A stretch of 32,000 bases of DNA from Horticoccus luteus (GCF_019464535.1 NZ_CP080507.1:630001-662000); one strand, 5' to 3'. Positions 5,801 through 29,105 are shown, counted from the first letter of the stretch. Program-made: numbers and translations. Notes: generated by a model from the sequence alone, not told the origin.

Positions 5801-7014
5801 CCGCTCGACCCGGCATTGACTTCAATCCTGTCCCTCTGGGCGTTGATCTCCCGGCTGGCTCCTCTTTTGTCGACGTGCCGATCAGTACGGCTTCAACCGT
5901 CAGCCCCGGGACTCGAACCGTTACGATGGCACTCGATCGGACGAGTTACTACTTGATCTCCGGCGATGGTCAGGCCGTGCTCGCCATCAACGGACCGCCC
6001 GAGATCGTTGTCGCGCCCGAAAGCCAGTTTATTGTCCAGGGCGGCACTGCGGTGTTCAACGTTGGGTTCATCGGTGGAGGCGTCACCTTCCAGTGGTATC
6101 ACGACGGAACAATGATTGCGGGGGCCACTTCTGCGACGTTGTCCTTGGCCAATGTGCAGAAGGGCAGTGCCGGCTCGTATTGGTGCGTGCTGACGAACAC
6201 CGCGGGCTCGACAAGCACGTCGGCGGTAGCTCTTTCGGTAACGCCGGCGGCGTATTTGTCGAACTTGTCGGTGCGGGCCAGCCTGCCGGCCGGCGAGACG
6301 CTCATCACCGGGTTTGTCGTGGAAGGCGGTGCGAAGCCGGTGTTAGTCCGCGCGGCCGGGCCGGCGCTCAATCGCTACGGCATCACGGGTTGCTCCGATC
6401 CCGGCCTAAAACTCTTCAACGCGATCAATACTTTGGTCGGTGAGAACGACGATTGGGACATGTCACTGGCGTCGGTCTTCGGCGACTTAGGCGCATTTCA
6501 GTTCGATGTCGGCAGCAAGGACGCGGCGTTTATGCCATCGTTTAACGGTCCGCACACCGTCCACGTATCCGGCGCCGCAACTGGCTTAGTGCTCGTTGAA
6601 GCCTATGATGCAGGCTCAAACGACGGCCGGGCCCTCGTCAACGTTTCGGCGAGATATCACGTAGGAACGGGTAGTGAAATTCTGATAGCCGGCATAGTCG
6701 TGGCTGGCGAGGGCTCACGGCAGGTTCTTCTGCGCGCTGTGGGGCCAAAGTTGGCAACATATGGAGTCGCGGATATCTTATCCGACCCGAAGCTGGAGGT
6801 GTATCGCGACGGGACTCTGATCGGATCGAATGATAATTGGGCATCGAGTCTCGAGTCGACATTCTCAGTGGTGGGTGCTTTTCCTCTCGAAACTGGGAGC
6901 AAGGATGCTGCGATGGTCCTCGAACTTGCTGCAGGCCGGCCCTACACGATCCAAGTATCTGGCGCAAATGGCGGGTCGGGTGAAGCGTTAGTGGAAGTTT
7001 ACGCGTTGCCGTAG
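2818..7014 (+). CDS. secreted multidomain M4 (thermolysin-family) zinc metalloprotease
   Basis: GTG start followed by a hydrophobic signal/anchor (LDLTAVALFCILAFW). Zinc site HEFTH starts at 4207, with the third ligand in GALNESFSD and GGVHMNSGIPNHAFY (M4 C-lobe). Approximate downstream modules:
- 4717-5680: PD40/TolB-like beta-propeller repeats (ITADGSTAVF, ISADGKYLAA, LSPDGQIALF).
- 5680-5990: Calx-beta-like domain (FKATGTARPGIDF...VDVPI).
- 5995-6244: Ig I-set-like domain (FQWYHDGTMIAGATSATLSL...GSYWCVLTN).
- 6244-7011: two copies of a ~127-aa module also found at the C-terminus of the 19350-29105 protein. Confidence 0.85.
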   Translation: MKTKALRLAGTVLDLTAVALFCILAFWPRGSADFADTAAGPRSGLNIAHAVVGARSAIPLGPAHHRPLTKSEEETLAAMRTALRVHNPTANHRLQSVPVRARNFPAPLEPQLSTAQRKVLQKLRWGPAKELMYRGDAADATVRTLASPALALGSPGGPEEAVSAVIRFTQTNKELFLLSNPAQELAVTTIDAIDGSGYVVRLQQRYDGIPVWPSEIIGNVSETGVLTVIAGSYIPTPSLASTQPSIEKAEAIEVALARGGFPAAAQGLTTEAKLVVFGDKGNVPELAYHVTMETPDERRSTFVSAVTGLVLLSYSEICDASATGSGVDLLGATRTLNVSTSGASYVLKDTSKAMYVPATGKGAISIYDAGEVATSSPPIGGSANLNGGYVPAAVSAAYNLSRVYDFYAGALSRISFDNLGADVIAVVRARNADGTTLSNAFWNSHFLTFGSGDRYPAALDVVAHEFTHAVTGSTAQLVYQGESGALNESFSDIMGEACEGYMTGAADWLVGTSLLRPSRSLSAPALFGQPASMSGYVRTTNDNGGVHMNSGIPNHAFYLLAEGLEGGGIGITAARDIFYRALRTKLTSRSTFYDLRSACVLAAGELYGAGEIQAQKTGQAFDAVEIYDAASVAEPQDLTPVSGADAYLFVYKELDGNSYLKRREAARGDGSALVPISAQPVSVSTRVSITADGSTAVFVSATHDLVAVGTDGSFDERARAPGVFNSVSISADGKYLAAIARDPTTGRAANKLFFVNRDDGVSQAIDLYAPSMDGPSGLQLIAVDEVDLSPDGQIALFDGLASTTLGDGTMIKGWSIFAVDLQTLSIYSLAGPYAGIDIGNPSFGRVSSGRALLEFNSPTSSGVIAVDLLHGAVATVSSYSPGSIYYAYPRYSAADDFVVFTNDYFDFGSLSYQPRVARISLQPDKITPKGVSSVLNAPAYSGLSYRRGVFAGPPLLTVSVLATSIGKGQSTAFRISRIGGDQAIRVPVLFKATGTARPGIDFNPVPLGVDLPAGSSFVDVPISTASTVSPGTRTVTMALDRTSYYLISGDGQAVLAINGPPEIVVAPESQFIVQGGTAVFNVGFIGGGVTFQWYHDGTMIAGATSATLSLANVQKGSAGSYWCVLTNTAGSTSTSAVALSVTPAAYLSNLSVRASLPAGETLITGFVVEGGAKPVLVRAAGPALNRYGITGCSDPGLKLFNAINTLVGENDDWDMSLASVFGDLGAFQFDVGSKDAAFMPSFNGPHTVHVSGAATGLVLVEAYDAGSNDGRALVNVSARYHVGTGSEILIAGIVVAGEGSRQVLLRAVGPKLATYGVADILSDPKLEVYRDGTLIGSNDNWASSLESTFSVVGAFPLETGSKDAAMVLELAAGRPYTIQVSGANGGSGEALVEVYALP

Positions 7015-15115: not shown

Positions 15116-15163
15116 GTATGATCCGGTGATAGGTAACAAACTATCCGGAGTGATAGGTGACAC
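15116..15163. repeat. IS left terminal inverted repeat with two direct subterminal motif copies
   Basis: Sequence: gtatgATCCGGTGATAGGTAACAaactATCCGGAGTGATAGGTGACAc. The ~20-nt motif ATCCGG(N0-2)TGATAGGTNACA occurs twice. Confidence 0.75.
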
Positions 15164-15203
15164 TTTTTGTTGATAGGTTGGAAGGGTTGGAGGCCAAGTA
15201 TAT

Positions 15204-16439
15204 TTAAGGGGAGGGTTTAAGGGAGGGGGCTTGGCTCCCTCCCTTTTCTGGATGGATCGGGCGGAAGGGAGCGACGTAGGCGGTCGGTTTGAAGCGGCCA
15301 CCTTCGGCATCAAAGCGCAGATGGCCGAGCAGGATATTGGCAAAATGCAGTTCCGTCTGGCCGTCGGGAGCACGGCGCAGGCCCACGCGTTTGCCGGCGA
15401 AGGCTTCGCCGAGGTGGTAGTTCTTTCCTTCGTGGGCGACATGGCCGCTGGTGCTGACCACCTTCACCTCGAACTCCGGGGCATAGACGATGGGTTTGTC
15501 GTGCTCGTTCAAGCGTCGGGTGCTGGGACGGTAAACCTCGGCCGGACGTTGCAGGTTCAGCGCCTCGTGCGGTCGTTCGTGGTTGTAGGTGTGCCGCCAG
15601 CGCTCGAAGCGGCGCTGCTGGGCGGTGAAGGTGGGCGAAGGAGGTTGGGTGGCCTCGGCCTTGAGATCGCGGTGCATGCGCTCGTGCGAGCCGTTGTCCT
15701 GTGGCGAGGCCGGGCGGGTGAACTCGACTTCGATGCCCTGCTCAATCCACCACACGCTCAAGGCGGAGAGCCGGCCCAGCCCGGTCGAGGCGAAGGGCGA
15801 TCCAAGGTCCACCCGGATGATCTCGGGCAGGCCGGTCTGGCGCATGAGCGCCCGGAAGGTGCCCAGGGTCCGGCGGAACTGCTGGTCGGGCTGGCCCCGC
15901 ACCGCCATGACGTAATGGCTGTAGCGGTCGCAGATGGTCAGCGGATCGCAGCGCTGGTTGTTGCCGAGCAGGAACCAGCCTTTGAAGTCCACGGTCCAGA
16001 CCTGATTGGGCTGATTGGGCACCGTCAGCGCCTGGTTGAGGGCGGGATAAACCCCGGGCCGACGGCGGCGCTTCACGCTCTGCCCGTGCCGCCGCAGGAT
16101 CTCGCCGATGGTGCTGCAAGCCGGTGGCCGTTCCACCCCGTGCTTGGTCTCCAGCAAGTCCTGGATCTTTTTCGGCCCCCAGGTCCGGTGCAGGCGACGC
16201 TCCGCCAGGACCAGCTTCTCGATCTGCGCGTCCGTGCGCTGCGGAAAACGGTGCGGGCGGTGGCTGCGCGGGCTCAAAGCCGCCAGGCCGCCTTCGGCGT
16301 AGCGTTCCAAATGCTTATAGGCCGTCTTCCGGCTGATGTTAAACTGCTCGCACAGATCCGTGATCGTGAACCGATCGGTCTGCGCCAAGCTGACGAAACG
16401 AATGATCTCTTCCATTGGGGTGGTGGTTTTCCACGGCAT
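15204..16439 (-). CDS. DDE transposase, integrase (rve) core with N-terminal HTH, IS481-like
   Basis: HTH: FTITDLCEQFNISRKTAYKHLERY. rve catalytic region: QVWTVDFKG (D), IIRVDLGSPF (D), ASPQDNGSHERMHRDLK (E). The length of 411 aa and the single ORF fit IS481-type elements. Confidence 0.9.
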   Translation of the reverse strand: MPWKTTTPMEEIIRFVSLAQTDRFTITDLCEQFNISRKTAYKHLERYAEGGLAALSPRSHRPHRFPQRTDAQIEKLVLAERRLHRTWGPKKIQDLLETKHGVERPPACSTIGEILRRHGQSVKRRRRPGVYPALNQALTVPNQPNQVWTVDFKGWFLLGNNQRCDPLTICDRYSHYVMAVRGQPDQQFRRTLGTFRALMRQTGLPEIIRVDLGSPFASTGLGRLSALSVWWIEQGIEVEFTRPASPQDNGSHERMHRDLKAEATQPPSPTFTAQQRRFERWRHTYNHERPHEALNLQRPAEVYRPSTRRLNEHDKPIVYAPEFEVKVVSTSGHVAHEGKNYHLGEAFAGKRVGLRRAPDGQTELHFANILLGHLRFDAEGGRFKPTAYVAPFRPIHPEKGGSQAPSLKPSP

Positions 16440-16450
16440 AGTGCCGCAGA

Positions 16451-16500
16451 GTGTAACCCATCACCCCGGATAATCTGTCACCTATCACTCCGGATCATAC
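16451..16500. repeat. IS right terminal inverted repeat with two direct subterminal motif copies
   Basis: The reverse complement reads gtatgATCCGGAGTGATAGGTGACAgattATCCGGGGTGATGGGTTACAc. It matches the left end apart from a 2-nt indel and a few substitutions. Confidence 0.75.
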
Positions 16501-16509
16501 CTCCCAGGG

Positions 16510-16941
16510 TCATTTCTGGAGGTCTAGCGATTCCAAAAGAGTGAAAGAAGTAACATCCTCAAGCTGGGCAAAAAACTGTTCAAAAGTGCCCGCAGTCTGG
16601 TTGACGAATCGACCTTCAATCACTGCATCAACCAAGTGGCCTCGCTTGCCCTTTTCAGCGGATGATCCCGGCCTATTTGCACCAATCCACAAACTAAGAG
16701 GATGCTTGTCATGATCGAATGCGCGTCTTGATTCATACAAGGCAGATATTGGAGACTCTAGGACGTAAAAACCACGAACCCGAACAACTTGTCCATCGAG
16801 CTCAACACGACGTTGCCACAGTTCGCTTAAGGATACTGAGCCTTCAGCCTTACGTTGTGACATGCCCGAGAGTGCCGATGCGAAGATGCCCAAGCAAACA
16901 ACACATAGAATCCAGAAGTTTGGCGTCTTGATCGATTTCAT
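16510..16941 (-). CDS. candidate immunity protein for the upstream RHS C-terminal toxin domain; N-terminal signal/anchor
   Basis: The ATG at 16939-16941 overlaps the RHS stop (16938-16940) as ATGA. The 143-aa product begins MKSIKTPNFWILCVVCLGIFASALSG (hydrophobic anchor). GC is about 45% (44 of the first 100 nt counted), against well over 60% in flanking core genes. I recognise no family. Confidence 0.6.
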   Translation of the reverse strand: MKSIKTPNFWILCVVCLGIFASALSGMSQRKAEGSVSLSELWQRRVELDGQVVRVRGFYVLESPISALYESRRAFDHDKHPLSLWIGANRPGSSAEKGKRGHLVDAVIEGRFVNQTAGTFEQFFAQLEDVTSFTLLESLDLQK

Positions 16942-19031
16942 GGGTAAGTGCCAATGGTGCGTTGAGTGGTAGACCATCCTTGATCAGTCCTGACGCCGCT
17001 GAGAACTTCGACGGTTATCCCGCTTCCGCCGGTTGCTGTCCGTCCGACGTAAAGCAAGATCGGACGCTGAAAGTCGTTGGAAGCAGAGATTACTTGGGCG
17101 ACATCTCCGTAAGCTCGCCCCGCAATCGTGTAGTTGCTGAAAGAATTGGCGGAAGGATGCGAATGATAGCCGCCAACGAATACCGTCCCGCCCGGCACAC
17201 TATAGGAGATAGATGCACCTGGAGTGACTGTCTTCCCATCCTGGACGTATGGAACACCTCCACGAACTGGCGTCGTGAAACCGTAATAGGTTACCTCATC
17301 CCGAACGTAAGAGAATATCGCGCCACTATATTCGAGGTGCTGCGGATCCGCGTTCGTCATGCGCTTTGCCAAAACGGACATCACTCCGCCGGCAGCATCT
17401 GCCGACGTGAAATCTCCATATGATGCCTGGCCGTTCGCACCTGAGACGCCACCTCGGGTTCCAGCGACCGCGACACCTCCCTCTGAGGCGATGCTCATTC
17501 CACTGTTTGGGGCTGCCTCCGCCTGCACTTGCGCGGCGGACCGGGCTGCGGCCGCGAGTGTCGCCGTAGCCGGAGCCATCTTTACATATGTATCGGTTAC
17601 GATCTCGTGTCCATTATACGTTACCCCGTTAGTCAGGGTCGCGAAAGCTGCCGCCGCTCCTGGCGTCAACGCTTTCACCTCGTTTCCATCGAGGTATATT
17701 AGTCCATTTTTTGCTGCGCTTTCGAGATACTTTCGAGCCTCGGCCTTCGCGACTCCTAGCGACGCAGCGGCCATTGACTGCTGCGCGAACGTTTCTGCCA
17801 TCCCGTTGAGCTGCTGATCACTTACTCCCGGCCCTCCAATCTGAGTTCCTCCCGCCCCTCCCTGGCCGTTCTCAGCCCACCAGACGCTCGCTGCAACCGC
17901 CCACCCGCGCTCTTCGGGCGACATGGCAGTCAGTTGCGCGGAGTATTCCTCGACGGTAAGCATGCCGAGCAGATCGATGCCATTGACCGGGTTGTTATTG
18001 CAGAAGCGGTAGAGGTTCATGCCGCCTTGCTCCCCACTGGGGTCGCGGCCGAGGAAGCGGCCGAGAGACGGCGAATAATACCGCATGCCGTAGTAAACCA
18101 AGCCGGTCTCGTCGTCGGTGTACTTCGTGGAGAAGCGGAAGGGGTTGTTCTTCGCTTGCGCGCCCTCCGCGCGCAACGACTCGCCGTAGGGGCTGTATTC
18201 GTAAGTGGCAGACTGGGTGCTGCCGACAGCGGAGAGGGTGGCCACATTGCCGTTGCCGTCGTAGCCGGGCAGGTAAGCGGTGACCGCCGTGCCGGTGTGA
18301 TCCACTTCCTGAAGCAGCGCACCAACTCCGCCGGTTGCCGTCAGGCTGCCCGCCTTGTCCAGTCCCCACGCATAGGTGCGTTGCCGGGTGCCGCTGCTGT
18401 TCAATTCCGCGATCAAGTTCCATCCTTGATAGATGAACCGCACGTCGCTTTCCAAGGACCAAGTGCTGCCGCTCCACTTTAAAACCTGCTTCACCGTGCG
18501 CCGTCCTGAGCTGTCGTAGCGAAACGTCACCCGCCGGCCCGGCAGCCCGACATTCATCGCCACCGTGCGCGTCTCCATCGCAGTCAGGCGGTTTTCTGCA
18601 TCCCAGGTGTAGTGCCAGCGACCGTCGCAGGTCACGTTGCCATCGGCATCATAGGTGATTCCTTCGGCGACCCACGGCAGAAACGCCGCCAGCAGGGAGG
18701 GGATTTCCACGGTGCCCGCCTTCGCCGCCTTCACCGCGATGCTGCTGGTATAGGCCGGGCCGTCGTTGTTATTCAACGTCACGCCGCTCGCCCAGTAGTT
18801 GCCCTGCCGGTCGGCGATCGCACCGTTGACCAGCACCTTCGCGTCCGCATCGGCGGTGCCCGAGACCGGGATATACAGATTGGGCCGCTTCGTGATCTGG
18901 TTGAGGTTGTTCACCGTCGCCGTCGCCTTCAACTCGGGATTGTCGGTCGCATTCACCTCCGTGCGATTGCCGGCTCCGTCGTAGCCATACACAAACTGCC
19001 GGTCCGGCAACGGCGCGCTCGTCGACGTCAC
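16938..19031 (-). CDS. RHS repeat protein fragment (5'-truncated): YD/RHS repeats, RHS core end, 340-aa C-terminal toxin-like domain
   Basis: YD repeats: YGYDGAGNRT, YDADGNV, WDAENRLT, FRYDSSGRR. RHS-associated core: YAWGLDKAGS...GGVGALLQ, YLPGYDGNGNV, YEYSPYGE, FRFSTKYTDDETGLVYYGMRYYSPSLGRFLGRDP. It ends in the PVNGIDLLGM variant of the PxxxxDPxGL cleavage motif (Met codon 17961-17963). The frame stays open, still YD-repeat-like, upstream to 19220, where a stop sits at 19221-19223. There is no ATG, GTG or TTG between 19220 and the GTG at 19031. Confidence 0.85.
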   Translation of the reverse strand: MTSTSAPLPDRQFVYGYDGAGNRTEVNATDNPELKATATVNNLNQITKRPNLYIPVSGTADADAKVLVNGAIADRQGNYWASGVTLNNNDGPAYTSSIAVKAAKAGTVEIPSLLAAFLPWVAEGITYDADGNVTCDGRWHYTWDAENRLTAMETRTVAMNVGLPGRRVTFRYDSSGRRTVKQVLKWSGSTWSLESDVRFIYQGWNLIAELNSSGTRQRTYAWGLDKAGSLTATGGVGALLQEVDHTGTAVTAYLPGYDGNGNVATLSAVGSTQSATYEYSPYGESLRAEGAQAKNNPFRFSTKYTDDETGLVYYGMRYYSPSLGRFLGRDPSGEQGGMNLYRFCNNNPVNGIDLLGMLTVEEYSAQLTAMSPEERGWAVAASVWWAENGQGGAGGTQIGGPGVSDQQLNGMAETFAQQSMAAASLGVAKAEARKYLESAAKNGLIYLDGNEVKALTPGAAAAFATLTNGVTYNGHEIVTDTYVKMAPATATLAAAARSAAQVQAEAAPNSGMSIASEGGVAVAGTRGGVSGANGQASYGDFTSADAAGGVMSVLAKRMTNADPQHLEYSGAIFSYVRDEVTYYGFTTPVRGGVPYVQDGKTVTPGASISYSVPGGTVFVGGYHSHPSANSFSNYTIAGRAYGDVAQVISASNDFQRPILLYVGRTATGGSGITVEVLSGVRTDQGWSTTQRTIGTYP

Positions 19032-19349
19032 GCTCCGGCCCAGATAATTGCGGGCGGCCGTGAGCTCCCCCCGCGCATTGTAACTGTAGCGGTAATAGGT
19101 GTCGTTGCCGTAGTCGGCAAACGCGAACCCGGACTGCTGGGCCGTCGCCCGCTGCCCCAGCGCGTTGTTATAGCCGAAACTGCGAAGCCTGTCCCGATTC
19201 GGGGCCTCGAAGCGGGAAACTCAAGCAGCGGACAATTTTGGGGTCAGCAGCTGGAAGGATGCCTGCCTATCAGACGAATTTTACAAGAAATTGGGCATCG
19301 GCGCCGCACGGGCCCCTGCTGAGAGTTGACCGCTGGGGGCGGATTCCCA

Positions 19350-22300
19350 ATGTCGCCCGCGATGTTCCGTCGTGTAATTCTTATAATCGTGGTGGTTTTG
19401 GCAGTGGGTTTGTTGGGGCGGTGGCTTTCGCACCGGACCGGCGGAGGTCCGACGAGCCCCATGGCGGCAGCGAAGAATGACGCTGGGTCGGCGGCACTCC
19501 CGGCTGCGAAGGGAACGCCGAATTCCCGCGTCGATGAGAAGCAGCCGGCTGCTTCCGCGAACTGGACGTCATTTCCTGTCTTTGGCGCGCACGGAGCGGT
19601 GACTTTGAGCGACATCCCGGCGGGGCGGTTTCACGATCAAGTGGCGCGGTTGGCGGCCGGACCGCAGGCGCGGACGCTGCACCAGCTCGAGACGTTGCAC
19701 GCGCCGCTCAATGACGTCAGATCGCTGCGCGTCGATGCGCGCGGAAGTCTGTATTACGTCTGCACGATTCCGGGTGCGCAGAAGGAGGCGATTGCGACGA
19801 CAACAAGCAGCGAGAGGAAGGCGGTGATGGAGGGCGCCATGCGGGCGGCCGGCGAGTCGCCCAGCGGCAGCCAATCGTATGCAGCCGCGGCGGGCGCGGC
19901 GGTGCCGGTCTCGGCACCTCCCATCCGGCATAGCAGACCGGGGGCGGAGAATGTCATCTATCTGAATTTCAGCGGTTATACAGTCAAAGGAACCGCGTGG
20001 AACGCGGAGCTGGCGAAGGCGGAGTTCGACTGCGTGCCTTACGATACGGATTCGGATCCGACGACGTTCAGCGCGAGCGAGCAGGCGGCGATAGTGGCGA
20101 TCTGGCAGCGGGTGGCGGAAGACTACCGGCCTTTTGATGTTGATGTGACGACGGAGCGCCCGGCGGTTTTTACCAGCCGCACGGCGCATGCCCTGATCAC
20201 GCGCAACACCGACGTGGAGTATAAACCGAATCCGGACAGCGACACCGCGAGCGGCGTGGCGTATGTCGGCGTCTTCGGCGGAGCGGATTATCAAAGCCTG
20301 AGCCCGGCGTTTATCTATTGGAATCTGCTGATCGATGTTTCCGCGATCGCGGATACGATTTCGCATGAGGTCGGCCACAATCTCGGGCTGACGCACGATG
20401 GGACGGCGACCGAGGAATACTATCGGGGCCATGGGATCGGCGAAACGTCGTGGGGGCCGTTGATGGGTGCGCCGAACAAATCGAACGTCACGCAATGGTC
20501 GAAGGGTGAGTATCGCGGGGCCAACAATCCGCAGGACGACATCGCGATCCTGACCGGAAATCTGGGGCGTCGGGCGGACGATGCGGGAGATAACGTGGCG
20601 GCGGCGAGTGAGATGGCCGCAGGCGGAGCGGGATGGACGGCGGGGGGCGTGATTGAGGCGAACACGGACAGCGATGTGTTCGCGTTTACGGCGGACTGGC
20701 CGAATGTGGCGATCACCGTTTCGCCGGACCGGCCGGCGGGGAGCGCCACGGGCGGCAACCTGGACGTGGTGGCGGAGTTGCTGGATGCGAGCGGGACGGT
20801 GGTGGCGCGGGCCGATCCGGCCAACCGTACGTCGGCGATCATCGTGCAGGATGTAGCGCCGGGTAGATATTATGTGCGAGTGAGCGCGACCGGGACGGGC
20901 AATCCGTGGGCGGATTCCCCGACGGGTTATACGAGTTACGGTTCGGTGGGCGGCTATACGATCGCGGTGGTGTCTCGTCCGCGCATCACGCCGGCCCGGA
21001 ATGTTGTGGCGCCGGGTCAGGCGATCGCGCTCGAGGGTGCGGTCGGAGGCGGTTCCGGGCTGACGTTTCGTTGGAAGAAGGACGGGACGTTCATCAATGG
21101 CGCGACGACGGCGACATTGAACGTGGGGAATGCGGGCCGCGGAGACAGCGGGGCCTATACGCTGGAAATCACGGATGGAAATTCGGTCACGCGGCGAGGC
21201 ACGGCGTTTGTACAGGTGGCGCCGGCGCAAACGGAATTGCGGATGTGGGGCAGTAACGACCGGGGGCAGACAGCGGTGCCGGCGGACTTGCACACGGCGG
21301 TGAGCGTGGCCGCGGGCGATGATAACACTTTGGTGATCGAGGCGGATGGGACGGTGCTTGGTTGGGGGCTCAACGACTCAGGCGACATGCGTGTGCCGGA
21401 CGGTCTCCATGCCGTAGTCGCAGTGGCAACGGCGGGAGAGCACGCGCTCGCGTTGCGGGCAGACGGGACCGTGATGAGTTGGGGACAAGCCGATGGTTTC
21501 AGTGTGAGGGGCGTGCCGGCAGATCTCGCGGACGTCGTGGCGGTGGCGACGGGCGGGAAGCATAATCTCGCGTTGAAAGCGGATGGGACGGTCGTCGCCT
21601 GGGGGGGCGACGAGAAGGGCCAGACTGACGTGCCGGATGGGCTGGTGGATGTGGTGGCCGTGGCCGCGGGGGATGAGCATTCGCTCGCGTTGAAACGGGA
21701 TGGGAAGGTGGTCGCCTGGGGCTCGAATTATGGCGGAGCGACGTATGTGCCGACTGGCCTGACGAATGTCGTGGCGATCAGCGCTGCGGCGAACGGATCT
21801 CTCGCGCTGAAAGCGGATGGGACGGTGGTGTTTTGGGGCATTGGCTACAATGGCCCGAGCAATATTCCGGCGGATCTGGCGCAGGTGAGCGGAGTGGCGT
21901 TGGGCGCGGAACACGTGATTGCGCGGAAGGGGGACGGGACGGTGGTGGGCTGGGGCTCGAATTCCTTTGGCCAGACGGATAATTCGCTCGGCTTGACCGA
22001 CGTGATTGGCGTCGCGGCAGGGCGGGCGCACACGGGGGCGTTGCGCGACGCGAGCCGCGATCACGTGCCCACGATCACTGTGGGGCCGCTGACGCAGAGC
22101 GTGGCAGAGGGCACGGACGTGACGTTGAGCGTGGAGGCGAGCGGCGGGGGAGCGCAGTTGTTTTATCAATGGCGGAAGAACGGGGAAGTCATCGCGGGCG
22201 CGACGACGGCCACGTTGGCGCTGGACGAAGTCACTTCCGCGGCCGGGGGTAGCTACGACATCATCGTGACCGACTGGCTCGGCAGGACGCCCTCGTCGCC

Positions 22301-25300
22301 CGCCGTGCTGACCGTGAATCCCTTGCCGGGCGTCACGAGCCGCAGCAATGCGCGACAGGTTTTGAGTCCGGGCGACACGCTGACATTGAACGTGGCGGCG
22401 ACGGGCGCCGGTGCGTTGCATTATCAGTGGCGGCGCAACGGGCGCGTGCTGGCGGGCGAGACCGGCGCAACGTTGAGCAAGCCGGCCATGGCCGTGGCGG
22501 ACAGCGGCACGTACATCGTGGAAGTGACCGACGACTGGGGGACGCGACGGGTGCCGTTCTTTGTGAACGTCATGCCCGCGTCAACGCGCGTCGTCATGTG
22601 GGGCGACGGCGGCGATCCGGCGCTCGGTGCGGTGCCGGCAGATCTGACGGATGCGGTGGCGCTGGCGGCCGGCTATCGCTTTTCGCTCGCGCTGCGGCGC
22701 GACGGCACGGTGGTGGGCTGGGGCCAGTCCAATGGTTGGGGCCAGGCGACACCGCCCGCCGGGCTGACCGACGTGGTGGCCATTGCGGGTGGGTTGTATC
22801 ATGCGCTGGCGTTGCGGGCGGATGGGACGGTGGTGGCTTGGGGAAGCCGGGGCGGCGATGCTTTGACGCTGCCGAGCGGTCTCTCCGACGTCACCGCGTT
22901 GGCCGGCGGTTCGGGGAATTCGACGTCGCTAAGGTTAAACGGCAAGGTCGCGACTTGGGGAGACGGAGGCTCCTACGGGCCGATGCCGGCGAACCTCCGC
23001 GATGTCATTGCGATCGCTTCCGGGGCTTATCACCGGTTGGCGTTGAAATCGGACGGCACAGTGGTCGCGTGGGGTTCGAACACTCGCGGGGAATCCACGG
23101 TGCCGGCGGGTCTCAGCGATGTGACTGCGATCGCGGCGGGCGGACAGATTTCGTTGGCGCTAAGAGCGGACGGCACGGTGGTCGCCTGGGGCGACAAGCC
23201 ATTTCCGGGCACGCAAATGCCGACGGACTTGAAGGACGTCGTGGCGATTGCGGTCGGGAGCACCGTGGCGGTGGCGTTGAAGAGCAATGGCACGCTGGTG
23301 ACGTGGGGTGCCAAAGTCGATGGGGCGAACATTCCCGCGGCGGTGACCAATACCCTCGCGGTCGCCATGGGCACCGCGCATGGGCTGGCGTTATGCGATA
23401 TGAGCCGGGACACCGCACCGGTGTTGACGACGGCTCCCGCGGACCAAGTGGTTGCGGAAGGACGCGATGCGACGTTCACGGTGGTGGTCAACGGCAGTGC
23501 GCCGCTTTCATATCAATGGCGGAAGGACGGCGTGCCGGTGGCCGGCGCGACAAATGCCACGCTGACCATCGTCGCCGCGGTGCCGAGCGAAGCAGGCCGA
23601 TACGACGTCGTGGCGACAAATTTGAGGGGCACGGTGACATCGCCGGCCGCCACCCTCACCGTCCGCCCGTTGCCAATTCTCACGAGCTGGTCGCCGGCGC
23701 GGCAGCGAGTCGCGCAGGGCCAGTCGTTTTCGTTGGCGGCAGCGGCGACGGGCACGGGGGGTTTGCATTACGAGTGGCGGCACGATGGCCGCGTGATTCC
23801 CGGGGCGACCGCGGCGACGTTCGAACGAGCGGAGACATCGTCGACGGACGGCGGACTTTATACGGTGGTCGTCACGGACGACGTGGGCAGCCGCAGCTAC
23901 GTGAGCGTGGTTGTGGTCGCGCCCACGGCGACCGAAGTGCGGGCGTGGGGCTCCAACGGCTATGGACAAACGAATGTGCCGGCCAATCTTGGGAACGTCG
24001 TGTCGGTGGCGGCCGCAGGCGAGCATTCGCTCGCGTTGCAGGGAGACGGCAAGGTCGTCGCGTGGGGCCGCAATGCCTACGGGGAATCCACCGTGCCCGG
24101 CGCCCTGGGGCCGGTCGTGGCGATTGCGGGCGGCACAACGTTTTCGGTGGCGGTGACGGACGCGGGCCGCGTGGTGGCGTGGGGCGACAACGCTGCCGGG
24201 CAGTTGAACGTGCCCGGCGACCTCAGCGAGGTCGTCGCGGTGGCCGCGGGCGAGGGATTTATCGTGGCGCTGAAAGCTGATGGCACCGTGCGCGCGTGGG
24301 GCACCAATCGTTTCGGAGAGTCGACCCCGCCGAGCAGGCTGGGGAACGTGACGGCGATCGCCGCCGGTTCGAGCAACGCACTGGCCGTCAAGGCGGATGG
24401 CACGGTGATCAGATGGGGTTCGAATGACGCGGCCTTGGACGTGCCGGCAGACTTGACGGATGTTGCGAACGTGGCGAGCGGAGGGCTTTATGCGATCGCG
24501 ACCAAGAGAGATGGGACAGTCGCCAGTTGGGGTGGCGGTCTGGCGCCCGCGCCGGCCGGGACCAGCACTGTCGCGACGGTGGCGGTGGGGCCGGGCCACG
24601 CCTTGGTGGCCCGGACAGATGGAAGTGTCGTGGGCTGGGCGAACAGCAACGTTCCTCAGACGACGCCGCCGGCCAATCTCGCGAACGTAATCGCGGTGGC
24701 GGCGGGCAACGGGCATGAGCTCGCTTTGCGCGACGCGTCCGGGGGCAAGGCGCCGGTCATCCTGACGCAGCCGCGGGATCAAACGGTGGTCGAGGGAACC
24801 GCGACGATCTTGTCGGTGAACGCATCGGGAGGACCGTCGGTGTTGCGCTATCAGTGGCAAAAGGACGGCGCGGAGGTGGCCGGAGCCACGACGGCAGTGC
24901 TGGCACTCACCAACGTCACCGGTGGCGGGAGCGGGCGCTATACGGTCGTGGTGAGCAACGACCTGGGCACGGTCACTTCGCTGGCCGCGACGTTGACGGT
25001 GCGGCTGCTGCCGGTCATCAGCGCCAGCAGCGCGGCGCGACTAGTGATCGCGCCCGGGCAACCCCTGGCGCTGTTTGTCACCGCGAGCGGAACGGGAAGT
25101 TTGCATTACCAATGGTATAAAGATGGCTCCGCTCTGCCGGGAGCGACGGCCGCCACTTATAACAAAAACGCCGCCGTCGTGACGGACAGTGGAAATTATT
25201 GGGTGGAGGTGAGCGATGAGGTGGGGGTGCGCGGGTCCGCGAAAATGAGCGTCCTCGTCAGTGGGGTGCGGACGGAGATCCGCGGGTGGGGAAAGGGCGT

Positions 25301-28300
25301 CGGCGCAAACGTGCCCGCGGGGATTTATGATGCGGTCGCGGTGGTGGCGGGAAATTTTTACGCCCTGGCGTTGCGGGCGGATGGGACGGTGGTCAGCTGG
25401 GGCTCTAGTTATGGCGGAGCGGCGCAGGTGCCCGCTGGCCTCACCAATGTGATCGGCCTGGCGGGGGGCAGCTCGCAGTCCTATGCGTGGCGCGCCGACG
25501 GGACCGTGGTGGGTTGGGGCCAGCCGTCGGGCGAGATGAACGTGCCGCAGGGGCTTTCCGACGTGATCGCTTTGGCGGCGGGGGATTTTCATGTGCTCGC
25601 TTTGCGGGGCGATGGCACGGTCGTGGCGTGGGGCAACGCGACGCAAGGAGCCCAAGCCGTCCCCGCGGGACTGGCTCACGTCACGGCGATCGCGGCGGGT
25701 CGCGCGCATTCGCTCGCTCTGAAATCCGATGGCACGGTGACGGGCTGGGGATCGAATGCGTGGGGACAGGCCACCCCGCCGGCCGGGCTTAAGCAAGTGG
25801 TGGCGATCGCGGCGGGTGGCGATCTTTCCGTGGCGTTGAAACGCGATGGCACGGTGGTCACGTGGGGTCTCGGGGCGGCGGATATCACCAGGCCGCCGCA
25901 GGGGCTGACCGACGTGGTCAAGATTGCCGCGGGCAATGCCTTCGCGCTGGCCGTGCGCGCGAATGGGAGCGTCACGGCCTGGGGCTACGATACGAGCCTC
26001 GCGGTGAGCACGGCACCGGCGTTGCGCGACGTGGTCAACGTCGCCGGCGGATATGACTTCGGGCTGGCCCTGCGCATGGCCGCCAACGATCCCGCACCGG
26101 TGATCACCGCTCAGCCCATTCCCGCCACAGCTGTGGAGGGCTCGTCGGCGACGTTAAACATTGCAGTCAAGGCCGGCGATTCCTCTCCCGTGTTTGAGTG
26201 GAGGAAAAACGGCGTTTCGCTCGGTCAGTCGATTCAGTCGCAGCTCACGCTGACGAACATCACGCCAGCGGATGCGGGCGGCTATTCGGTCGTCGTGACC
26301 AACAGTGGCGGCTCGGTGACGAGCGAGGCGGTGGCTTTGACCGTGGTGCCGCTGCCGAGGATCGTGCGGCCGGCGAAACCGCGGCAGCTTTTGCGCGCGG
26401 GGGAGCCGCTGACGCTGGCGATCGCGGCGGAAGGCACCGGGACTTTGCACTACCAGTGGTTCCGCAACCGGCGGCCGATCGACGGAGCCACTCAGGCGAG
26501 TTACGTGCGGCCGTCGTGCACGGTGGCGGACAAGGGACTTTATTGGGTGGAGGTCAGCGACGATGTCGGCCTGCGGCGGAGCCGCCTCCTCAGTGTAAGC
26601 GTAGCGCCACAGGTGAGTGCCGTGGTGGCGTGGGGCGATGTGCTGACCTACAATTTGCTGCCCGACAAGGTAACGGATGTAGCCGAGATGGCGGGCGGCA
26701 CCCAGTTCGCGTTCTATTTGCATGCGGATGGCACGGTCAGCGTGGTCGGCAATCCGGGCGTGGCCCACGTGCCGGCCGGACTGGCAGGAGTGGTCGCCAT
26801 CGGAGCGGGCGGTTGGCAAGCGATGGCCGTGAAGGCCGATGGTTCGGTGGTCCAGTGTGGTAGCAACCTATATCCGGCCCCGGCGTACTTGACCGATGTC
26901 GTGGCCGTGGCCGCGGGCAATGGACATTGTCTCGCGTTGCGGGCGGACGGCACCGTGGTCGCATGGGGTGACAACAGAAACAACCAGACCACCGTGCCGG
27001 CGGGTTTGACCAACGTCGTGGCCATTAGCGCCGGGCAGGATTCCTCAGCGGCGGTGACCGCGGACGGCACGCTCTATTGCTGGGGTTACGGAGGTTCATG
27101 GATAGTCACGCGGGATGCCGTCGCGGTGGCGACGGGAACCGATGCCACGCTGGTCCTCAAGAGCGACGGAACGGTCTTTATGCAGAGATACGGATCGCAT
27201 GGGGAGTCGAGCGTGCCGGCGGGGCTCGCGAACGTGGCCGAAGTGGTCGCCGGTTCGCTGCATCTGGTGGCGTTGAAATCCGACGGCACGGTGGTGGCGT
27301 GGGGCCAATCGTCCCTCGGAAAAACCGTGGTGCCCGCCGGTCTCGACCGCGTCGTGGGCATAGCGGCAGGCAGCGATTTTTCGCTCGCCCTGCGCGAGGC
27401 GGCACCGGCGAGTGCGCCCGCGATCGTGACTGCGCCGGTCGGCCAACGCGTGCTGGCGGGACGCTCAGCGGAATTTCGCGTGAGCGTCGTGGGAACGCCG
27501 GCCCTGACTTTCCAGTGGAAAAAGAACGGAGCCGCACTTCCCGGAGAAACGGCGGCGACACTGAAACTAGCGGCCGTGGAGGCTTCCGATGCGGGCGCCT
27601 ACAGCGTCACCGTGACCAATGCGCAAGGCAGCGCGACCAGTGCAGCGGCGACGCTCACGGTCGTGCCGCGTTCCGCATTTGCGGGTAGCTATTTCGGGAC
27701 GTTTGGCTCGGGCGGCGCGTGGGGATTGCACGTGCGCGACGACGGCACGGCGGTGCTGGTCGCGGACTTGCGGAGCCGGCAGAGCGCGCTCGTGGTGGAG
27801 TTCAGCGTGGCGGCGGACGGCACGTTTGACGCACTGGGCGCGGAGATGCGCTCTTCGCTACAAACGCCGGCGGGCGGGCGTTGGGCGGCGGCGCCGCTGG
27901 CAAGCGATTTCTCCCTCACCGGACAGATCGGCGGAAACGGTGCGATCGCCGGCAACCTGACGGGCCTGGGCGAAACGTTCTCGGGCGCGCTCGACGCGGC
28001 GAACGGTGCAGCGCACGCGCGAGCGGGCTATTATACAGCGACGGCGCTCGCGGCTGACGCCGGCGAAACATATCTCGTGATCGGTCCGTCCGGGCAAGCC
28101 GTCGCGGTGGTCACAGCGCCGGGGCGGGTCGAGAGTGCGGCCGGCATCGTCGACGCCGGGGGGCAGTTGGCGGCGACGAGCGGCTCGCACTCTTCGATCA
28201 ACGTTGCGGTGGGTTCGGCTGGAGAAAATGTCAGCGTGAGCGTGCTTCCGGCGGGCGCGGCGGCGGCGATTCGTTACGCGGGATTGTCCGATCGCGTGGC

Positions 28301-29105
28301 GCCGGTGGCGCGGTTCACCAATCTCTCGATTCGCAGCCGCGCTGGAGCGGGATCGCAGACCCTGATTGTCGGTTTCGTGGTCAACGGCGCGGGCACGATG
28401 CCGCTTTTGGTGCGGGGCATCGGTCCCGCGCTGAGCGCGTTTGGCGTCACCAATGCGGTGCCTGATCCGCGTCTGCGATTGTTCGACGCGCACGGGACGG
28501 AAGTGGATGGGAACGACAACTGGAACGGCTCGCTGGCGTTGCGCGACGAGTTCCGGATCGTGGGGGCGTTCGAACCGGCGGCCGACTCCAAGGATGCCGC
28601 GCTTTACTCCGAGCGGCCGGCGGGAGCCTATACGTTCCACGCGGTGACCAATGACGGGACGGAAGGCGTGGCGTTGGCGGAACTGTATGTCGCCGACGCG
28701 GGACCGGGCACCACGGATCTGGTGAACATCTCGGCGCGGACTTACGTGGGCACGGGAGACGATGTGTTGATCGCGGGCTTCGTCGTGGCCGGCAACGCGC
28801 CGAAGCGGTTGTTGATCCGCGGATTGGGGCCGACACTGGCGGGGTATGGCGTGACGGGCGTGCTGGCGAACCCGGTGCTGCGTGTTTTTGAAGGCGGGAC
28901 GGAAATCGCGCTGAACGACGACTGGCAGGGCGGGGCGGACTTGAAGGCCGCGTTTGCGACGGTGGGGGCGGCGCCGATGGCGAGCGACTCAAGTCAGGAT
29001 GCGGCGTTGCTGATCACGCTGGAGCCGGGAATCTACACGGCACAGGTGAGCGGCGTGAGTGGCTCCGCGGGGGTGGCGTTGGTGGAAATCTTCGCGCTGC
29101 CGTGA
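19350..29105 (+). CDS. giant secreted metzincin-type zinc metalloprotease with PPC domain, five Ig-RCC1 propeller-Ig super-repeats and a tandem C-terminal module
   Basis: ATG at 19350; TTG at 19326 and ATG at 19362 are alternatives. Signal/anchor: FRRVILIIVVVLAVGLLG. Metzincin motif HEVGHNLGLTHD starts at 20364. Approximate modules:
- 20578-20970: pre-peptidase C-terminal-like domain (DSDVFAFTA...GRYYVRVSATG).
- 20975-27665: five units of Ig-like domain, seven RCC1-like blades of about 39 aa (WGxNxxGQxxVPxxLxxVVAVAAGxxHxLALxxDGTVxx), then an Ig-like domain.
- 27665-28290: Ala/Gly-rich unassigned region.
- 28314-29102: two copies of the same C-terminal module as the M4 protease. Confidence 0.85.
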   Translation: MSPAMFRRVILIIVVVLAVGLLGRWLSHRTGGGPTSPMAAAKNDAGSAALPAAKGTPNSRVDEKQPAASANWTSFPVFGAHGAVTLSDIPAGRFHDQVARLAAGPQARTLHQLETLHAPLNDVRSLRVDARGSLYYVCTIPGAQKEAIATTTSSERKAVMEGAMRAAGESPSGSQSYAAAAGAAVPVSAPPIRHSRPGAENVIYLNFSGYTVKGTAWNAELAKAEFDCVPYDTDSDPTTFSASEQAAIVAIWQRVAEDYRPFDVDVTTERPAVFTSRTAHALITRNTDVEYKPNPDSDTASGVAYVGVFGGADYQSLSPAFIYWNLLIDVSAIADTISHEVGHNLGLTHDGTATEEYYRGHGIGETSWGPLMGAPNKSNVTQWSKGEYRGANNPQDDIAILTGNLGRRADDAGDNVAAASEMAAGGAGWTAGGVIEANTDSDVFAFTADWPNVAITVSPDRPAGSATGGNLDVVAELLDASGTVVARADPANRTSAIIVQDVAPGRYYVRVSATGTGNPWADSPTGYTSYGSVGGYTIAVVSRPRITPARNVVAPGQAIALEGAVGGGSGLTFRWKKDGTFINGATTATLNVGNAGRGDSGAYTLEITDGNSVTRRGTAFVQVAPAQTELRMWGSNDRGQTAVPADLHTAVSVAAGDDNTLVIEADGTVLGWGLNDSGDMRVPDGLHAVVAVATAGEHALALRADGTVMSWGQADGFSVRGVPADLADVVAVATGGKHNLALKADGTVVAWGGDEKGQTDVPDGLVDVVAVAAGDEHSLALKRDGKVVAWGSNYGGATYVPTGLTNVVAISAAANGSLALKADGTVVFWGIGYNGPSNIPADLAQVSGVALGAEHVIARKGDGTVVGWGSNSFGQTDNSLGLTDVIGVAAGRAHTGALRDASRDHVPTITVGPLTQSVAEGTDVTLSVEASGGGAQLFYQWRKNGEVIAGATTATLALDEVTSAAGGSYDIIVTDWLGRTPSSPAVLTVNPLPGVTSRSNARQVLSPGDTLTLNVAATGAGALHYQWRRNGRVLAGETGATLSKPAMAVADSGTYIVEVTDDWGTRRVPFFVNVMPASTRVVMWGDGGDPALGAVPADLTDAVALAAGYRFSLALRRDGTVVGWGQSNGWGQATPPAGLTDVVAIAGGLYHALALRADGTVVAWGSRGGDALTLPSGLSDVTALAGGSGNSTSLRLNGKVATWGDGGSYGPMPANLRDVIAIASGAYHRLALKSDGTVVAWGSNTRGESTVPAGLSDVTAIAAGGQISLALRADGTVVAWGDKPFPGTQMPTDLKDVVAIAVGSTVAVALKSNGTLVTWGAKVDGANIPAAVTNTLAVAMGTAHGLALCDMSRDTAPVLTTAPADQVVAEGRDATFTVVVNGSAPLSYQWRKDGVPVAGATNATLTIVAAVPSEAGRYDVVATNLRGTVTSPAATLTVRPLPILTSWSPARQRVAQGQSFSLAAAATGTGGLHYEWRHDGRVIPGATAATFERAETSSTDGGLYTVVVTDDVGSRSYVSVVVVAPTATEVRAWGSNGYGQTNVPANLGNVVSVAAAGEHSLALQGDGKVVAWGRNAYGESTVPGALGPVVAIAGGTTFSVAVTDAGRVVAWGDNAAGQLNVPGDLSEVVAVAAGEGFIVALKADGTVRAWGTNRFGESTPPSRLGNVTAIAAGSSNALAVKADGTVIRWGSNDAALDVPADLTDVANVASGGLYAIATKRDGTVASWGGGLAPAPAGTSTVATVAVGPGHALVARTDGSVVGWANSNVPQTTPPANLANVIAVAAGNGHELALRDASGGKAPVILTQPRDQTVVEGTATILSVNASGGPSVLRYQWQKDGAEVAGATTAVLALTNVTGGGSGRYTVVVSNDLGTVTSLAATLTVRLLPVISASSAARLVIAPGQPLALFVTASGTGSLHYQWYKDGSALPGATAATYNKNAAVVTDSGNYWVEVSDEVGVRGSAKMSVLVSGVRTEIRGWGKGVGANVPAGIYDAVAVVAGNFYALALRADGTVVSWGSSYGGAAQVPAGLTNVIGLAGGSSQSYAWRADGTVVGWGQPSGEMNVPQGLSDVIALAAGDFHVLALRGDGTVVAWGNATQGAQAVPAGLAHVTAIAAGRAHSLALKSDGTVTGWGSNAWGQATPPAGLKQVVAIAAGGDLSVALKRDGTVVTWGLGAADITRPPQGLTDVVKIAAGNAFALAVRANGSVTAWGYDTSLAVSTAPALRDVVNVAGGYDFGLALRMAANDPAPVITAQPIPATAVEGSSATLNIAVKAGDSSPVFEWRKNGVSLGQSIQSQLTLTNITPADAGGYSVVVTNSGGSVTSEAVALTVVPLPRIVRPAKPRQLLRAGEPLTLAIAAEGTGTLHYQWFRNRRPIDGATQASYVRPSCTVADKGLYWVEVSDDVGLRRSRLLSVSVAPQVSAVVAWGDVLTYNLLPDKVTDVAEMAGGTQFAFYLHADGTVSVVGNPGVAHVPAGLAGVVAIGAGGWQAMAVKADGSVVQCGSNLYPAPAYLTDVVAVAAGNGHCLALRADGTVVAWGDNRNNQTTVPAGLTNVVAISAGQDSSAAVTADGTLYCWGYGGSWIVTRDAVAVATGTDATLVLKSDGTVFMQRYGSHGESSVPAGLANVAEVVAGSLHLVALKSDGTVVAWGQSSLGKTVVPAGLDRVVGIAAGSDFSLALREAAPASAPAIVTAPVGQRVLAGRSAEFRVSVVGTPALTFQWKKNGAALPGETAATLKLAAVEASDAGAYSVTVTNAQGSATSAAATLTVVPRSAFAGSYFGTFGSGGAWGLHVRDDGTAVLVADLRSRQSALVVEFSVAADGTFDALGAEMRSSLQTPAGGRWAAAPLASDFSLTGQIGGNGAIAGNLTGLGETFSGALDAANGAAHARAGYYTATALAADAGETYLVIGPSGQAVAVVTAPGRVESAAGIVDAGGQLAATSGSHSSINVAVGSAGENVSVSVLPAGAAAAIRYAGLSDRVAPVARFTNLSIRSRAGAGSQTLIVGFVVNGAGTMPLLVRGIGPALSAFGVTNAVPDPRLRLFDAHGTEVDGNDNWNGSLALRDEFRIVGAFEPAADSKDAALYSERPAGAYTFHAVTNDGTEGVALAELYVADAGPGTTDLVNISARTYVGTGDDVLIAGFVVAGNAPKRLLIRGLGPTLAGYGVTGVLANPVLRVFEGGTEIALNDDWQGGADLKAAFATVGAAPMASDSSQDAALLITLEPGIYTAQVSGVSGSAGVALVEIFALP
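20975..27665 (+). repeat. five intragenic tandem super-repeats of ~1.34-1.35 kb (Ig, 7-bladed RCC1-like propeller, Ig)
   Basis: The first-blade Trp codons of successive propellers are at 21246, 22599, 23946, 25287 and 26631. Spacings are 1353, 1347, 1341 and 1344 nt, all multiples of 3. Within each propeller the blade period is about 117 nt. Strings such as gcggatgggacggtggt recur. Confidence 0.85.

Follow-up and report, generated by a model that had tools for sequence, protein, structure and literature searches.

A DUF4329-related toxin domain and its putatively exported partner in an RHS cassette of Horticoccus luteus

Tox-JAB-2, a domain that overlaps Pfam DUF4329, has been described as a member of the JAB superfamily carried on the tips of RHS proteins and conserving E, H[ST]H, S and D (Zhang et al. 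2012, PMC3482391). The same study proposed a nuclease role for both Tox-JAB-1 and Tox-JAB-2 and recorded Imm65, the partner of Tox-JAB-1, as a lipoprotein. DUF4329/Tox-JAB-2 tips are widespread (one survey found them in more than 150 Salmonella serotypes, and E. coli K-12 RhsB carries one), and annotation papers pass on an RNase label for them without an assay. The present work concerns a stretch of 32,000 nucleotides from Horticoccus luteus (GCF_019464535.1 NZ_CP080507.1:630001-662000), called the window here and numbered from its first letter, in which an RHS gene ends in a putative toxin domain and is followed by a candidate immunity gene. Comparison of the domain with its relatives supports its assignment to a sister clade of Tox-JAB-2/DUF4329, homologous to this family but outside the current limits of Pfam. 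The explanation as a whole, i.e. a sister-clade toxin tip with an exported immunity protein, acting as a periplasmic hydrolase and present in the window as an orphan copy, is considered likely.

The domain comprises residues 536-697 of the RHS product (approximately 162 amino acids, aa; 16941..17426, minus strand), and its assignment to the JAB/MPN fold and to the vicinity of DUF4329 (Tox-JAB-2) was based on phmmer, alignments, hhalign, AlphaFold2 (AF2) and Foldseek. A phmmer search with the last 175 residues against 1.84 billion (1.84e9) cluster representatives at E<=1e-3 returned 10 proteins, that is the window's own product and nine relatives (E 2.6e-15 to 2.6e-4), the latter coming from one Verrucomicrobiota metagenome-assembled genome (MAG) and from metagenome contigs. 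Several of the relatives lie after RHS core junctions, e.g. NNAVNGYDLLGML, NNPVNTFDPTGN and NNPVRFIDPDGM; such junctions precede the tips of P0004, P0007, P0008, P0009 and of the protein from locus L010. The alignment of the family (A1) comprises a domain of about 160 residues that opens with an F-x-S-x-D-x-AG helix and keeps an invariant Glu (E-[YF]-[GS]-G), H-x-H, Asp and Tyr (L-Y-L-G-R). Judged from these comparisons the toxin family is rare but real. A word-indexed homologue search gave no match with the 330-aa tip, P0009 only with the family profile and, with RhsB-CT, only near-identical E. coli/Salmonella proteins. No match was obtained when the domain was compared with plasmids by tblastn, a single short match was found for P0010 among phages and none for RhsB-CT, and the PHROGs scan produced one weak match (phrog_26864, E 0.007). 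The Pfam model Mago-bind, which scored 23.4 bits against a cut-off of 20.6 on the C-terminal hairpin DGTWRSKT... of two relatives (L011 4884-5456 and P0003), was rejected as an artefact of a 27-residue profile.

A preliminary description of the sequence had begun the module at 17348 and made it 136 aa long. Its C-terminal location was right but its start was not: the domain begins about 26 residues earlier, at 17426, with the conserved N-terminal helix (FTSADAAGG...). The same description had drawn attention to an HSHP motif with its His codon at 17163-17165 and a Glu 56 residues upstream, and to an unsatisfied strict JAMM spacing (HxHx7SxxD); all of this agrees with direct reading of the sequence. 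The Glu, E567 (17331..17333, minus strand), belongs to an E-Y-S-G motif at the start of a beta-strand, is present in all 13 sequences covering the column, aligns with the Glu of DUF4329 and is the predicted general base. The predicted metal ligands H623 (17163-17165) and H625 (17157-17159, both read on the reverse complement) enclose S624 at the end of the strand VFVGGYHSH (H623-S624-H625, 17157..17165, minus strand) and are found in 14 sequences out of 14. The same holds for D643 (17103..17105, minus strand), the predicted third ligand, placed at the N-terminus of model helix 108-115. In this 14-sequence alignment, which combines the family with canonical DUF4329 proteins, H623, H625, D643 and Y661 are invariant, as is E567 wherever it is covered.

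The counterpart of the JAMM Ser is S632 (17136..17138, minus strand), part of an FS motif kept in eight of nine members of the new family. Full invariance of the F and S is confined to alignment A7, with its 11 rows; in alignment A6 these columns contain YW or FN in the canonical DUF4329 proteins. With S632 included, the residue set E, H[ST]H, S and D defined by Zhang et al. is complete in the window (E567, H623-S-H625, S632 and D643). The window spacing, H623-S-H625-x6-S632-x10-D643, does not satisfy the strict JAMM motif E-xn-H-x-H-x7-S-x2-D, and a 10-residue hairpin insertion separates S632 from D643. Relatives P0010 and P0005 read HxH-x6-S-x2-D, shorter than the JAMM motif by a single residue, and the subgroup to which the window domain belongs carries an insertion of 4-10 residues between Ser and Asp (alignment A1).

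The relationship to DUF4329 was examined at the profile level with an alignment of four proteins (A4): E. coli K-12 RhsB-CT, a Salmonella homologue, a K. oxytoca tip annotated as RhsD and a Tenacibaculum protein annotated as DUF4329. RhsB-CT, used as the positive control, matched PF14220 with 136 bits (E 6.8e-40). Comparison of A1 with A4 by hhalign gave a probability of 95.8 % and an E-value of 8.1e-9 over 109 columns, with the Glu, HxH, Asp and Tyr in register. The real score was 57.9, while 30 column shuffles of A4 reached at most 20.2 and an unrelated alignment (A3) scored 11.4. Removal of the three most DUF4329-like members left a six-member subgroup that still gave 95.2 %. Matches to PF14220 below the gathering cut-off of 28.6 bits were seen in five of the nine relatives (14.2-21.8 bits), and two of the nine had sub-threshold Prok-JAB matches (P0010, 20.4 bits against a cut-off of 25; P0002, 12.2 bits). 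The family consensus scored 13.5 bits against PF14220, below its threshold. The JAB and Prok-JAB models did not match the window protein, and the tip and its sub-fragments, scanned against Pfam, NCBIfam and PADLOC, gave no match for the toxin domain. Among the PDB sequences, neither the single sequence nor profiles A1, A7 and A8 found a meaningful match. The domain was treated as a sister clade because it is homologous to DUF4329 by profile comparison yet stays under the Pfam threshold.

The enterobacterial DUF4329 tips (L005 4826-5425 and the rhsD tail of L006) have conserved Cys residues in S-I-C-x-D, G-L-I-C-K-D and C-P-x-G that the new clade does not have. Such residues would fit disulfide formation in the periplasm.

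The fold was predicted by AF2 from the 11-row alignment with a predicted local distance difference test (pLDDT) value of 89.1 and a predicted template modelling (pTM) score of 0.85. In the model E567 heads strand 33-42, HSH ends strand 82-89 and D643 caps helix 108-115, and the insertion between Ser and Asp forms a small hairpin (98-107, strands 98-101 and 104-107). A Glu at the head of a strand, HxH at the end of a strand and an Asp at a helix cap constitute the JAMM active-site arrangement. Among the top 50 Foldseek matches in the PDB there were almost only MPN/JAB chains, including CSN6, BRCC36-KIAA0157, CBASS Cap3, Rpn8, Prp8 Jab1/MPN, NPL4 and EMC8/9, with probabilities up to 0.99; one match was found among viral structures. 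Comparison with human Rpn11, using a sequence 100 % identical to the PDB chains, aligned only the vvGwYHSHP strand (P ~5e-4; shuffles <=13.6). The MPN/JAB fold is therefore supported by the model at the level of class and not as a close structural match. The predicted His/His/Asp metal site may bind Zn and support hydrolase activity. The suspicion voiced in the preliminary description, that of a divergent JAB/MPN- or DUF4329-like module, was thus borne out by profile-profile comparison, by the sub-threshold PF14220 and Prok-JAB matches of the relatives and by structure prediction, in which the Foldseek list was of the expected class though modest in score.

The candidate immunity gene (143 aa; 16510..16941, minus strand) starts with an ATG that overlaps the stop codon of the RHS gene (CCATGA). 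Its product begins with a putative signal peptide, MKSIKTPNFWILCVVCLGIFASA followed by LSG, which is of the Sec type by reading and has an N-terminal hydropathy of 2.86. In six other loci (L009, L010, L004, L011, L003 and L012) the gene that directly follows the toxin encodes a homologue of this protein. Pairwise phmmer comparisons gave E-values between 1e-18 and 6e-3, the best pair of every locus being at 2e-6 or better. Nearly all members of this partner family carry an N-terminal signal peptide or a lipobox. The family has no Pfam or PDB relative, and the NCBIfam and PADLOC scans of the partner were also empty. E. coli YhhH, the neighbour of RhsB, is an Imm-NTF2-2 protein (PF15631, E 2.5e-26); the window partner showed no phmmer similarity to YhhH and is not Imm-NTF2-2. 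By its position and conservation, the product of 16510-16941 is a candidate cognate immunity protein of a new exported family, with a presumed protective role.

Export signals were also seen on other partners of JAB-type toxins. The partner of P0010 (L009 3489-3827) has a lipobox ending in FGGC and that of P0009 (L013 1749-2150) one ending in VTAC, both proteins being unrelated to the window partner. The K. oxytoca YbbC/YhhH protein (L006 1975-2343), partner of a canonical DUF4329 tip, has the lipobox LFAC, and E. coli YhhH (L005 5400-5783) has a hydrophobic N-terminus ending in WAQC. Exported immunity is a hallmark of periplasm-acting toxins, as established for the amidases, muramidases and lipases of type VI secretion systems (T6SS). 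Since the partners of JAB-type toxins look exported, we infer a periplasmic site of action.

On this basis the segment 16941-17426 would be the toxin tip of an RHS polymorphic-toxin cassette endowed with the full residue set of a JAMM-type zinc hydrolase, in which E567 would act as the general base, H623, H625 and D643 would bind the metal, and S632 would be displaced from the Asp by the hairpin. The toxin would most probably attack an envelope substrate in the target cell's periplasm, as a metallo-(iso)peptidase or amidase; peptide cross-links of peptidoglycan or links between proteins and peptidoglycan can be named as speculative candidates for this substrate. The immunity protein would be exported and would neutralise the toxin in the periplasm by direct binding. 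The window copy itself would have to recombine into a full-length rhs gene before it could be deployed, or may mainly provide immunity. An extension to all JAB-fold polymorphic toxins (the new clade, DUF4329/Tox-JAB-2 and Tox-JAB-1), which would then be periplasmic zinc (iso)peptidases cutting isopeptide-type bonds of the envelope and not nucleases, is conceivable but doubtful. Were it true, the toxin and partner of the window would stand for a new toxin/immunity family within that class, in which the exported immunity protein has a fold not described before and the active site is modified by the hairpin.

The RHS-family open reading frame (ORF; 16938..19031, minus strand, 697 aa from the first GTG) was identified from the ORF list and its translation and is laid out as YD repeats, RHS-associated core, linker and toxin domain. 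The Pfam scan detected PF05593 (RHS_repeat) at E 1.6e-7, and the NCBIfam scan placed the repeat-associated core at aa 279-357 (17961..18197, minus strand; TIGR03696, 91.1 bits, E 4.6e-26). The core ends with NNNPVNGIDLLGML, a variant of the PxxxxDPxGL cleavage or demarcation motif, and the equivalent junction in relative P0004 reads LNNAVNGYDLLGML. The Ala/Gly-rich stretch that had been remarked upon earlier was confirmed as a linker or pre-toxin region of 178 aa (aa 358-535; 17427..17960, minus strand) with 21.9 % A and 13.5 % G. It had no Pfam match and no detectable relatives, was dissimilar to the corresponding part of P0004 past the core junction, and appeared as low-confidence helices in a single-sequence AF2 model of the 330-aa tip (pLDDT 35).

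The RHS gene is truncated at its 5' end, because YD-repeat coding continues for 63 start-less codons upstream and no N-terminal trafficking domain is present. The three-frame translation of 19032..19220 (minus strand) gave these 63 in-frame codons 5' of the GTG, reading FGYNNALGQR... and YRYSYNARGELTAARNY and bounded upstream by a stop; the first ATG, GTG or TTG after this stop in the ORF listing is at position 19031. About 357 aa precede the linker and tip, and they contain neither a trafficking nor a secretion domain at the N-terminus. The window protein thus shows repeats and a core ahead of a variable tip, as RHS polymorphic toxins do, but the full-length shell of such systems is missing from the window gene.

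An IS481-family insertion sequence (IS), recognised by its inverted repeats and transposase gene, occupies 15126..16495 (minus strand), and its end is separated by 15 bp from the stop codon of the immunity gene. Its 39-nt terminal inverted repeats (15126-15164 and 16450-16488) are 85 % complementary, and the transposase gene (15204-16439, minus strand) encodes rve, HTH_32 and LZ_Tnp_IS481 domains. The G+C content of 16000-18000, which covers the toxin tip, the immunity gene and the end of the IS, is 0.56-0.58 in comparison to 0.64-0.69 in the flanks, and the G+C skew switches sign in the same interval; both are consistent with horizontally acquired DNA. Promoter and terminator scans at the locus stayed at the background level, and the Rfam scan of the window gave no match. 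The window copy is probably an orphan cassette because the RHS shell is truncated, the G+C content is lower, an IS481 element is adjacent and related loci contain arrays of modules. Such arrays of short RHS fragments or stand-alone tips occur at L009, L011 and L012.

At L009 (2860-4757, on the same marine metagenome contig as L001 and L008) P0010 and P0003 stand in tandem as stand-alone tips, each with its own, unrelated downstream partner, and a gene with a weak Tlde1 domain is next; this locus looks like an orphan toxin/immunity array. In L011 (4884-7757, Candidatus Synoicihabitans MAG, Verrucomicrobiota) a stand-alone tip and its partner are followed by a 496-aa RHS fragment, part of which, DGLWDYTWDAENRL..., closely resembles the RHS part of the window; this resemblance hints at an origin of the window in a related verrucomicrobial lineage. 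L012 (354-1108) encodes P0002, the closest relative (~50 % identity), as a 97-aa stub without the Glu half of the domain; the partner there is intact and very similar to that of the window (GTFDQFFAQLEDVT), and a short RHS fragment is next.

Two large genes on the plus strand were also noted in the window. The 3259-aa ORF at 19326-29105, which runs divergently to the RHS fragment, encodes a reprolysin-like zinc-protease motif close to its N-terminus (HEVGHNLGLTHD), together with multiple Ig domains and with RCC1-like domains that contain ~19 matches to RCC1 repeats. The other, at 2818-7014, encodes a thermolysin-type (M4) metallopeptidase of 1398 aa with a propeptide motif and Ig domains. Together they suggest a region rich in secreted or surface proteins.

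Several observations weigh against the proposed explanation. The window protein has no Pfam match even at E<=10 and none in NCBIfam, PADLOC or the PDB sequences, and the window sequence alone compares weakly with the DUF4329 profile (P 0.005), so that the family profile was needed for the link. The spacing between Ser and Asp is unlike both JAMM and canonical DUF4329, the Foldseek scores are modest (E 2.5e-3 or weaker; template modelling, TM, scores 0.38-0.40), and the putative metal site is read from the secondary structure of the model. As to export, the signal peptides were called by eye and by hydropathy, the N-terminal signal of the partner at L009 4353-4757 is weak, and no export signal is seen on the product of the gene downstream of the Tenacibaculum toxin. 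Finally, a nuclease or RNase role is the only functional proposal that the literature holds for the JAB toxin superfamily.

If the missing database match and the low TM-scores are given full weight, HSHP could have arisen by chance in a domain that has no relation to JAB/MPN. This is very improbable, as the two His, the Asp and, wherever it is covered, the Glu are kept throughout the 14-sequence alignment, the profile-profile score against DUF4329 lies far above the shuffles and the Foldseek list is almost purely MPN. More weight can be given to the idea that the JAB-fold toxin is a nuclease or RNase working in the target's cytoplasm, like RadC-type JAB domains. Most characterised RHS tips do act in the cytoplasm. 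The toxin JAB clades, moreover, are argued to lack the residues of the ubiquitin-tail tunnel and to resemble RadC (Zhang et al. 2012, PMC3482391), and DUF4329 is labelled an RNase domain in T6SS surveys, a label repeated by later annotation papers. However, the literature that could be searched yielded no enzymatic assay on a DUF4329 toxin to back it, a 2024 preprint on Shiga toxin-producing E. coli (STEC) states the activity and substrate of DUF4329 as unknown, and the export signals on the partners in 7/7 loci of the clade, weak in one case, as well as on the partners of P0009 and P0010, on K. oxytoca YbbC/YhhH and on Imm65, do not suit a cytoplasmic toxin. A nuclease was accordingly judged improbable in comparison with the periplasmic hydrolase.

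The third alternative concerns the state of the locus: the cassette may be a decaying, non-functional remnant in which at most the immunity gene is under selection. The 63 start-less YD codons ahead of the GTG, the lack of an N-terminal trafficking domain, the IS481-family element 15 bp downstream and a promoter scan no better than expected from shuffled sequence would all fit, and the closest relative, P0002, is also a 5'-truncated stub beside an intact immunity gene. On the other hand, the 697-codon frame is intact with all catalytic residues kept, and so is the immunity gene, coupled to it through ATGA. Orphan rhs-CT/immunity modules are, besides, known to form a reservoir from which recombination can supply the main gene. 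A remnant is thus rather unlikely, although less so than a nuclease, and it is compatible with the periplasmic hydrolase explanation, as it concerns expression and not the identity of the domain.

Exported partners of JAB-type toxins sit badly with the RNase label attached to DUF4329. The locus described here adds to these toxins a clade not captured by Pfam, a new immunity family and, through the export signals of the partners, a testable argument for periplasmic action. If confirmed, such action would establish a class of antibacterial effectors that target the envelope with a new enzymatic activity, and current annotations would be corrected. The window copy, being probably a silent orphan cassette, has limited biological weight of its own.

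In comparison with known systems, the locus resembles the orphan rhs-CT/immunity modules in its truncated core, tip and immunity gene, its lower G+C content and the adjacent mobile-element genes. It differs from them in that the usual orphans sit downstream of a main gene, whereas no full-length rhs gene is present in the 32-kb window. With Tox-JAB-1/Imm65, found on RHS tips of Bacteroidetes, it shares a JAB-fold tip and an immunity protein that is exported, a lipoprotein in the case of Imm65. Tox-JAB-1 differs in its motif (NxxxE, HxH, S, D) and in being confined to one lineage; it was set apart here by its published description.

The predicted fold class is that of the JAMM/MPN+ enzymes (Rpn11, CSN5, AMSH, BRCC36 and prokaryotic JAB proteins such as Cap3). 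The Glu ~45-60 residues ahead of HxH and the Asp at the N-terminus of a helix are common to both, and the HxH at the strand end matches G-[WG]-Y-H-S-H-P of Rpn11. The window domain has HxH-x6-S-x10-D instead of HxH-x7-S-x2-D, and a loop or hairpin in the model between strands 3 and 5 where canonical MPN domains have a helix. It is a presumed secreted toxin with an immunity protein, and no ubiquitin-like substrate is expected for it.

The closest likeness is to DUF4329 itself. Both domains are C-terminal tips of RHS proteins, ~120-160 aa long and placed after the core motif, and they share the order of elements: an F-x-S-x-D-x-A helix, an E-[YF]-x-G strand, P-x-G, Y-H-[ST]-H, S...D and Y-L-G. 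The window domain is, however, 15-24 % identical to the four canonical tips, and its partner belongs to a new family instead of Imm-NTF2-2. The new clade is further distinguished by its Ser-Asp hairpin of 4-10 residues and by a C-terminal beta-hairpin extension (T-W-x-[ST]-x-T).

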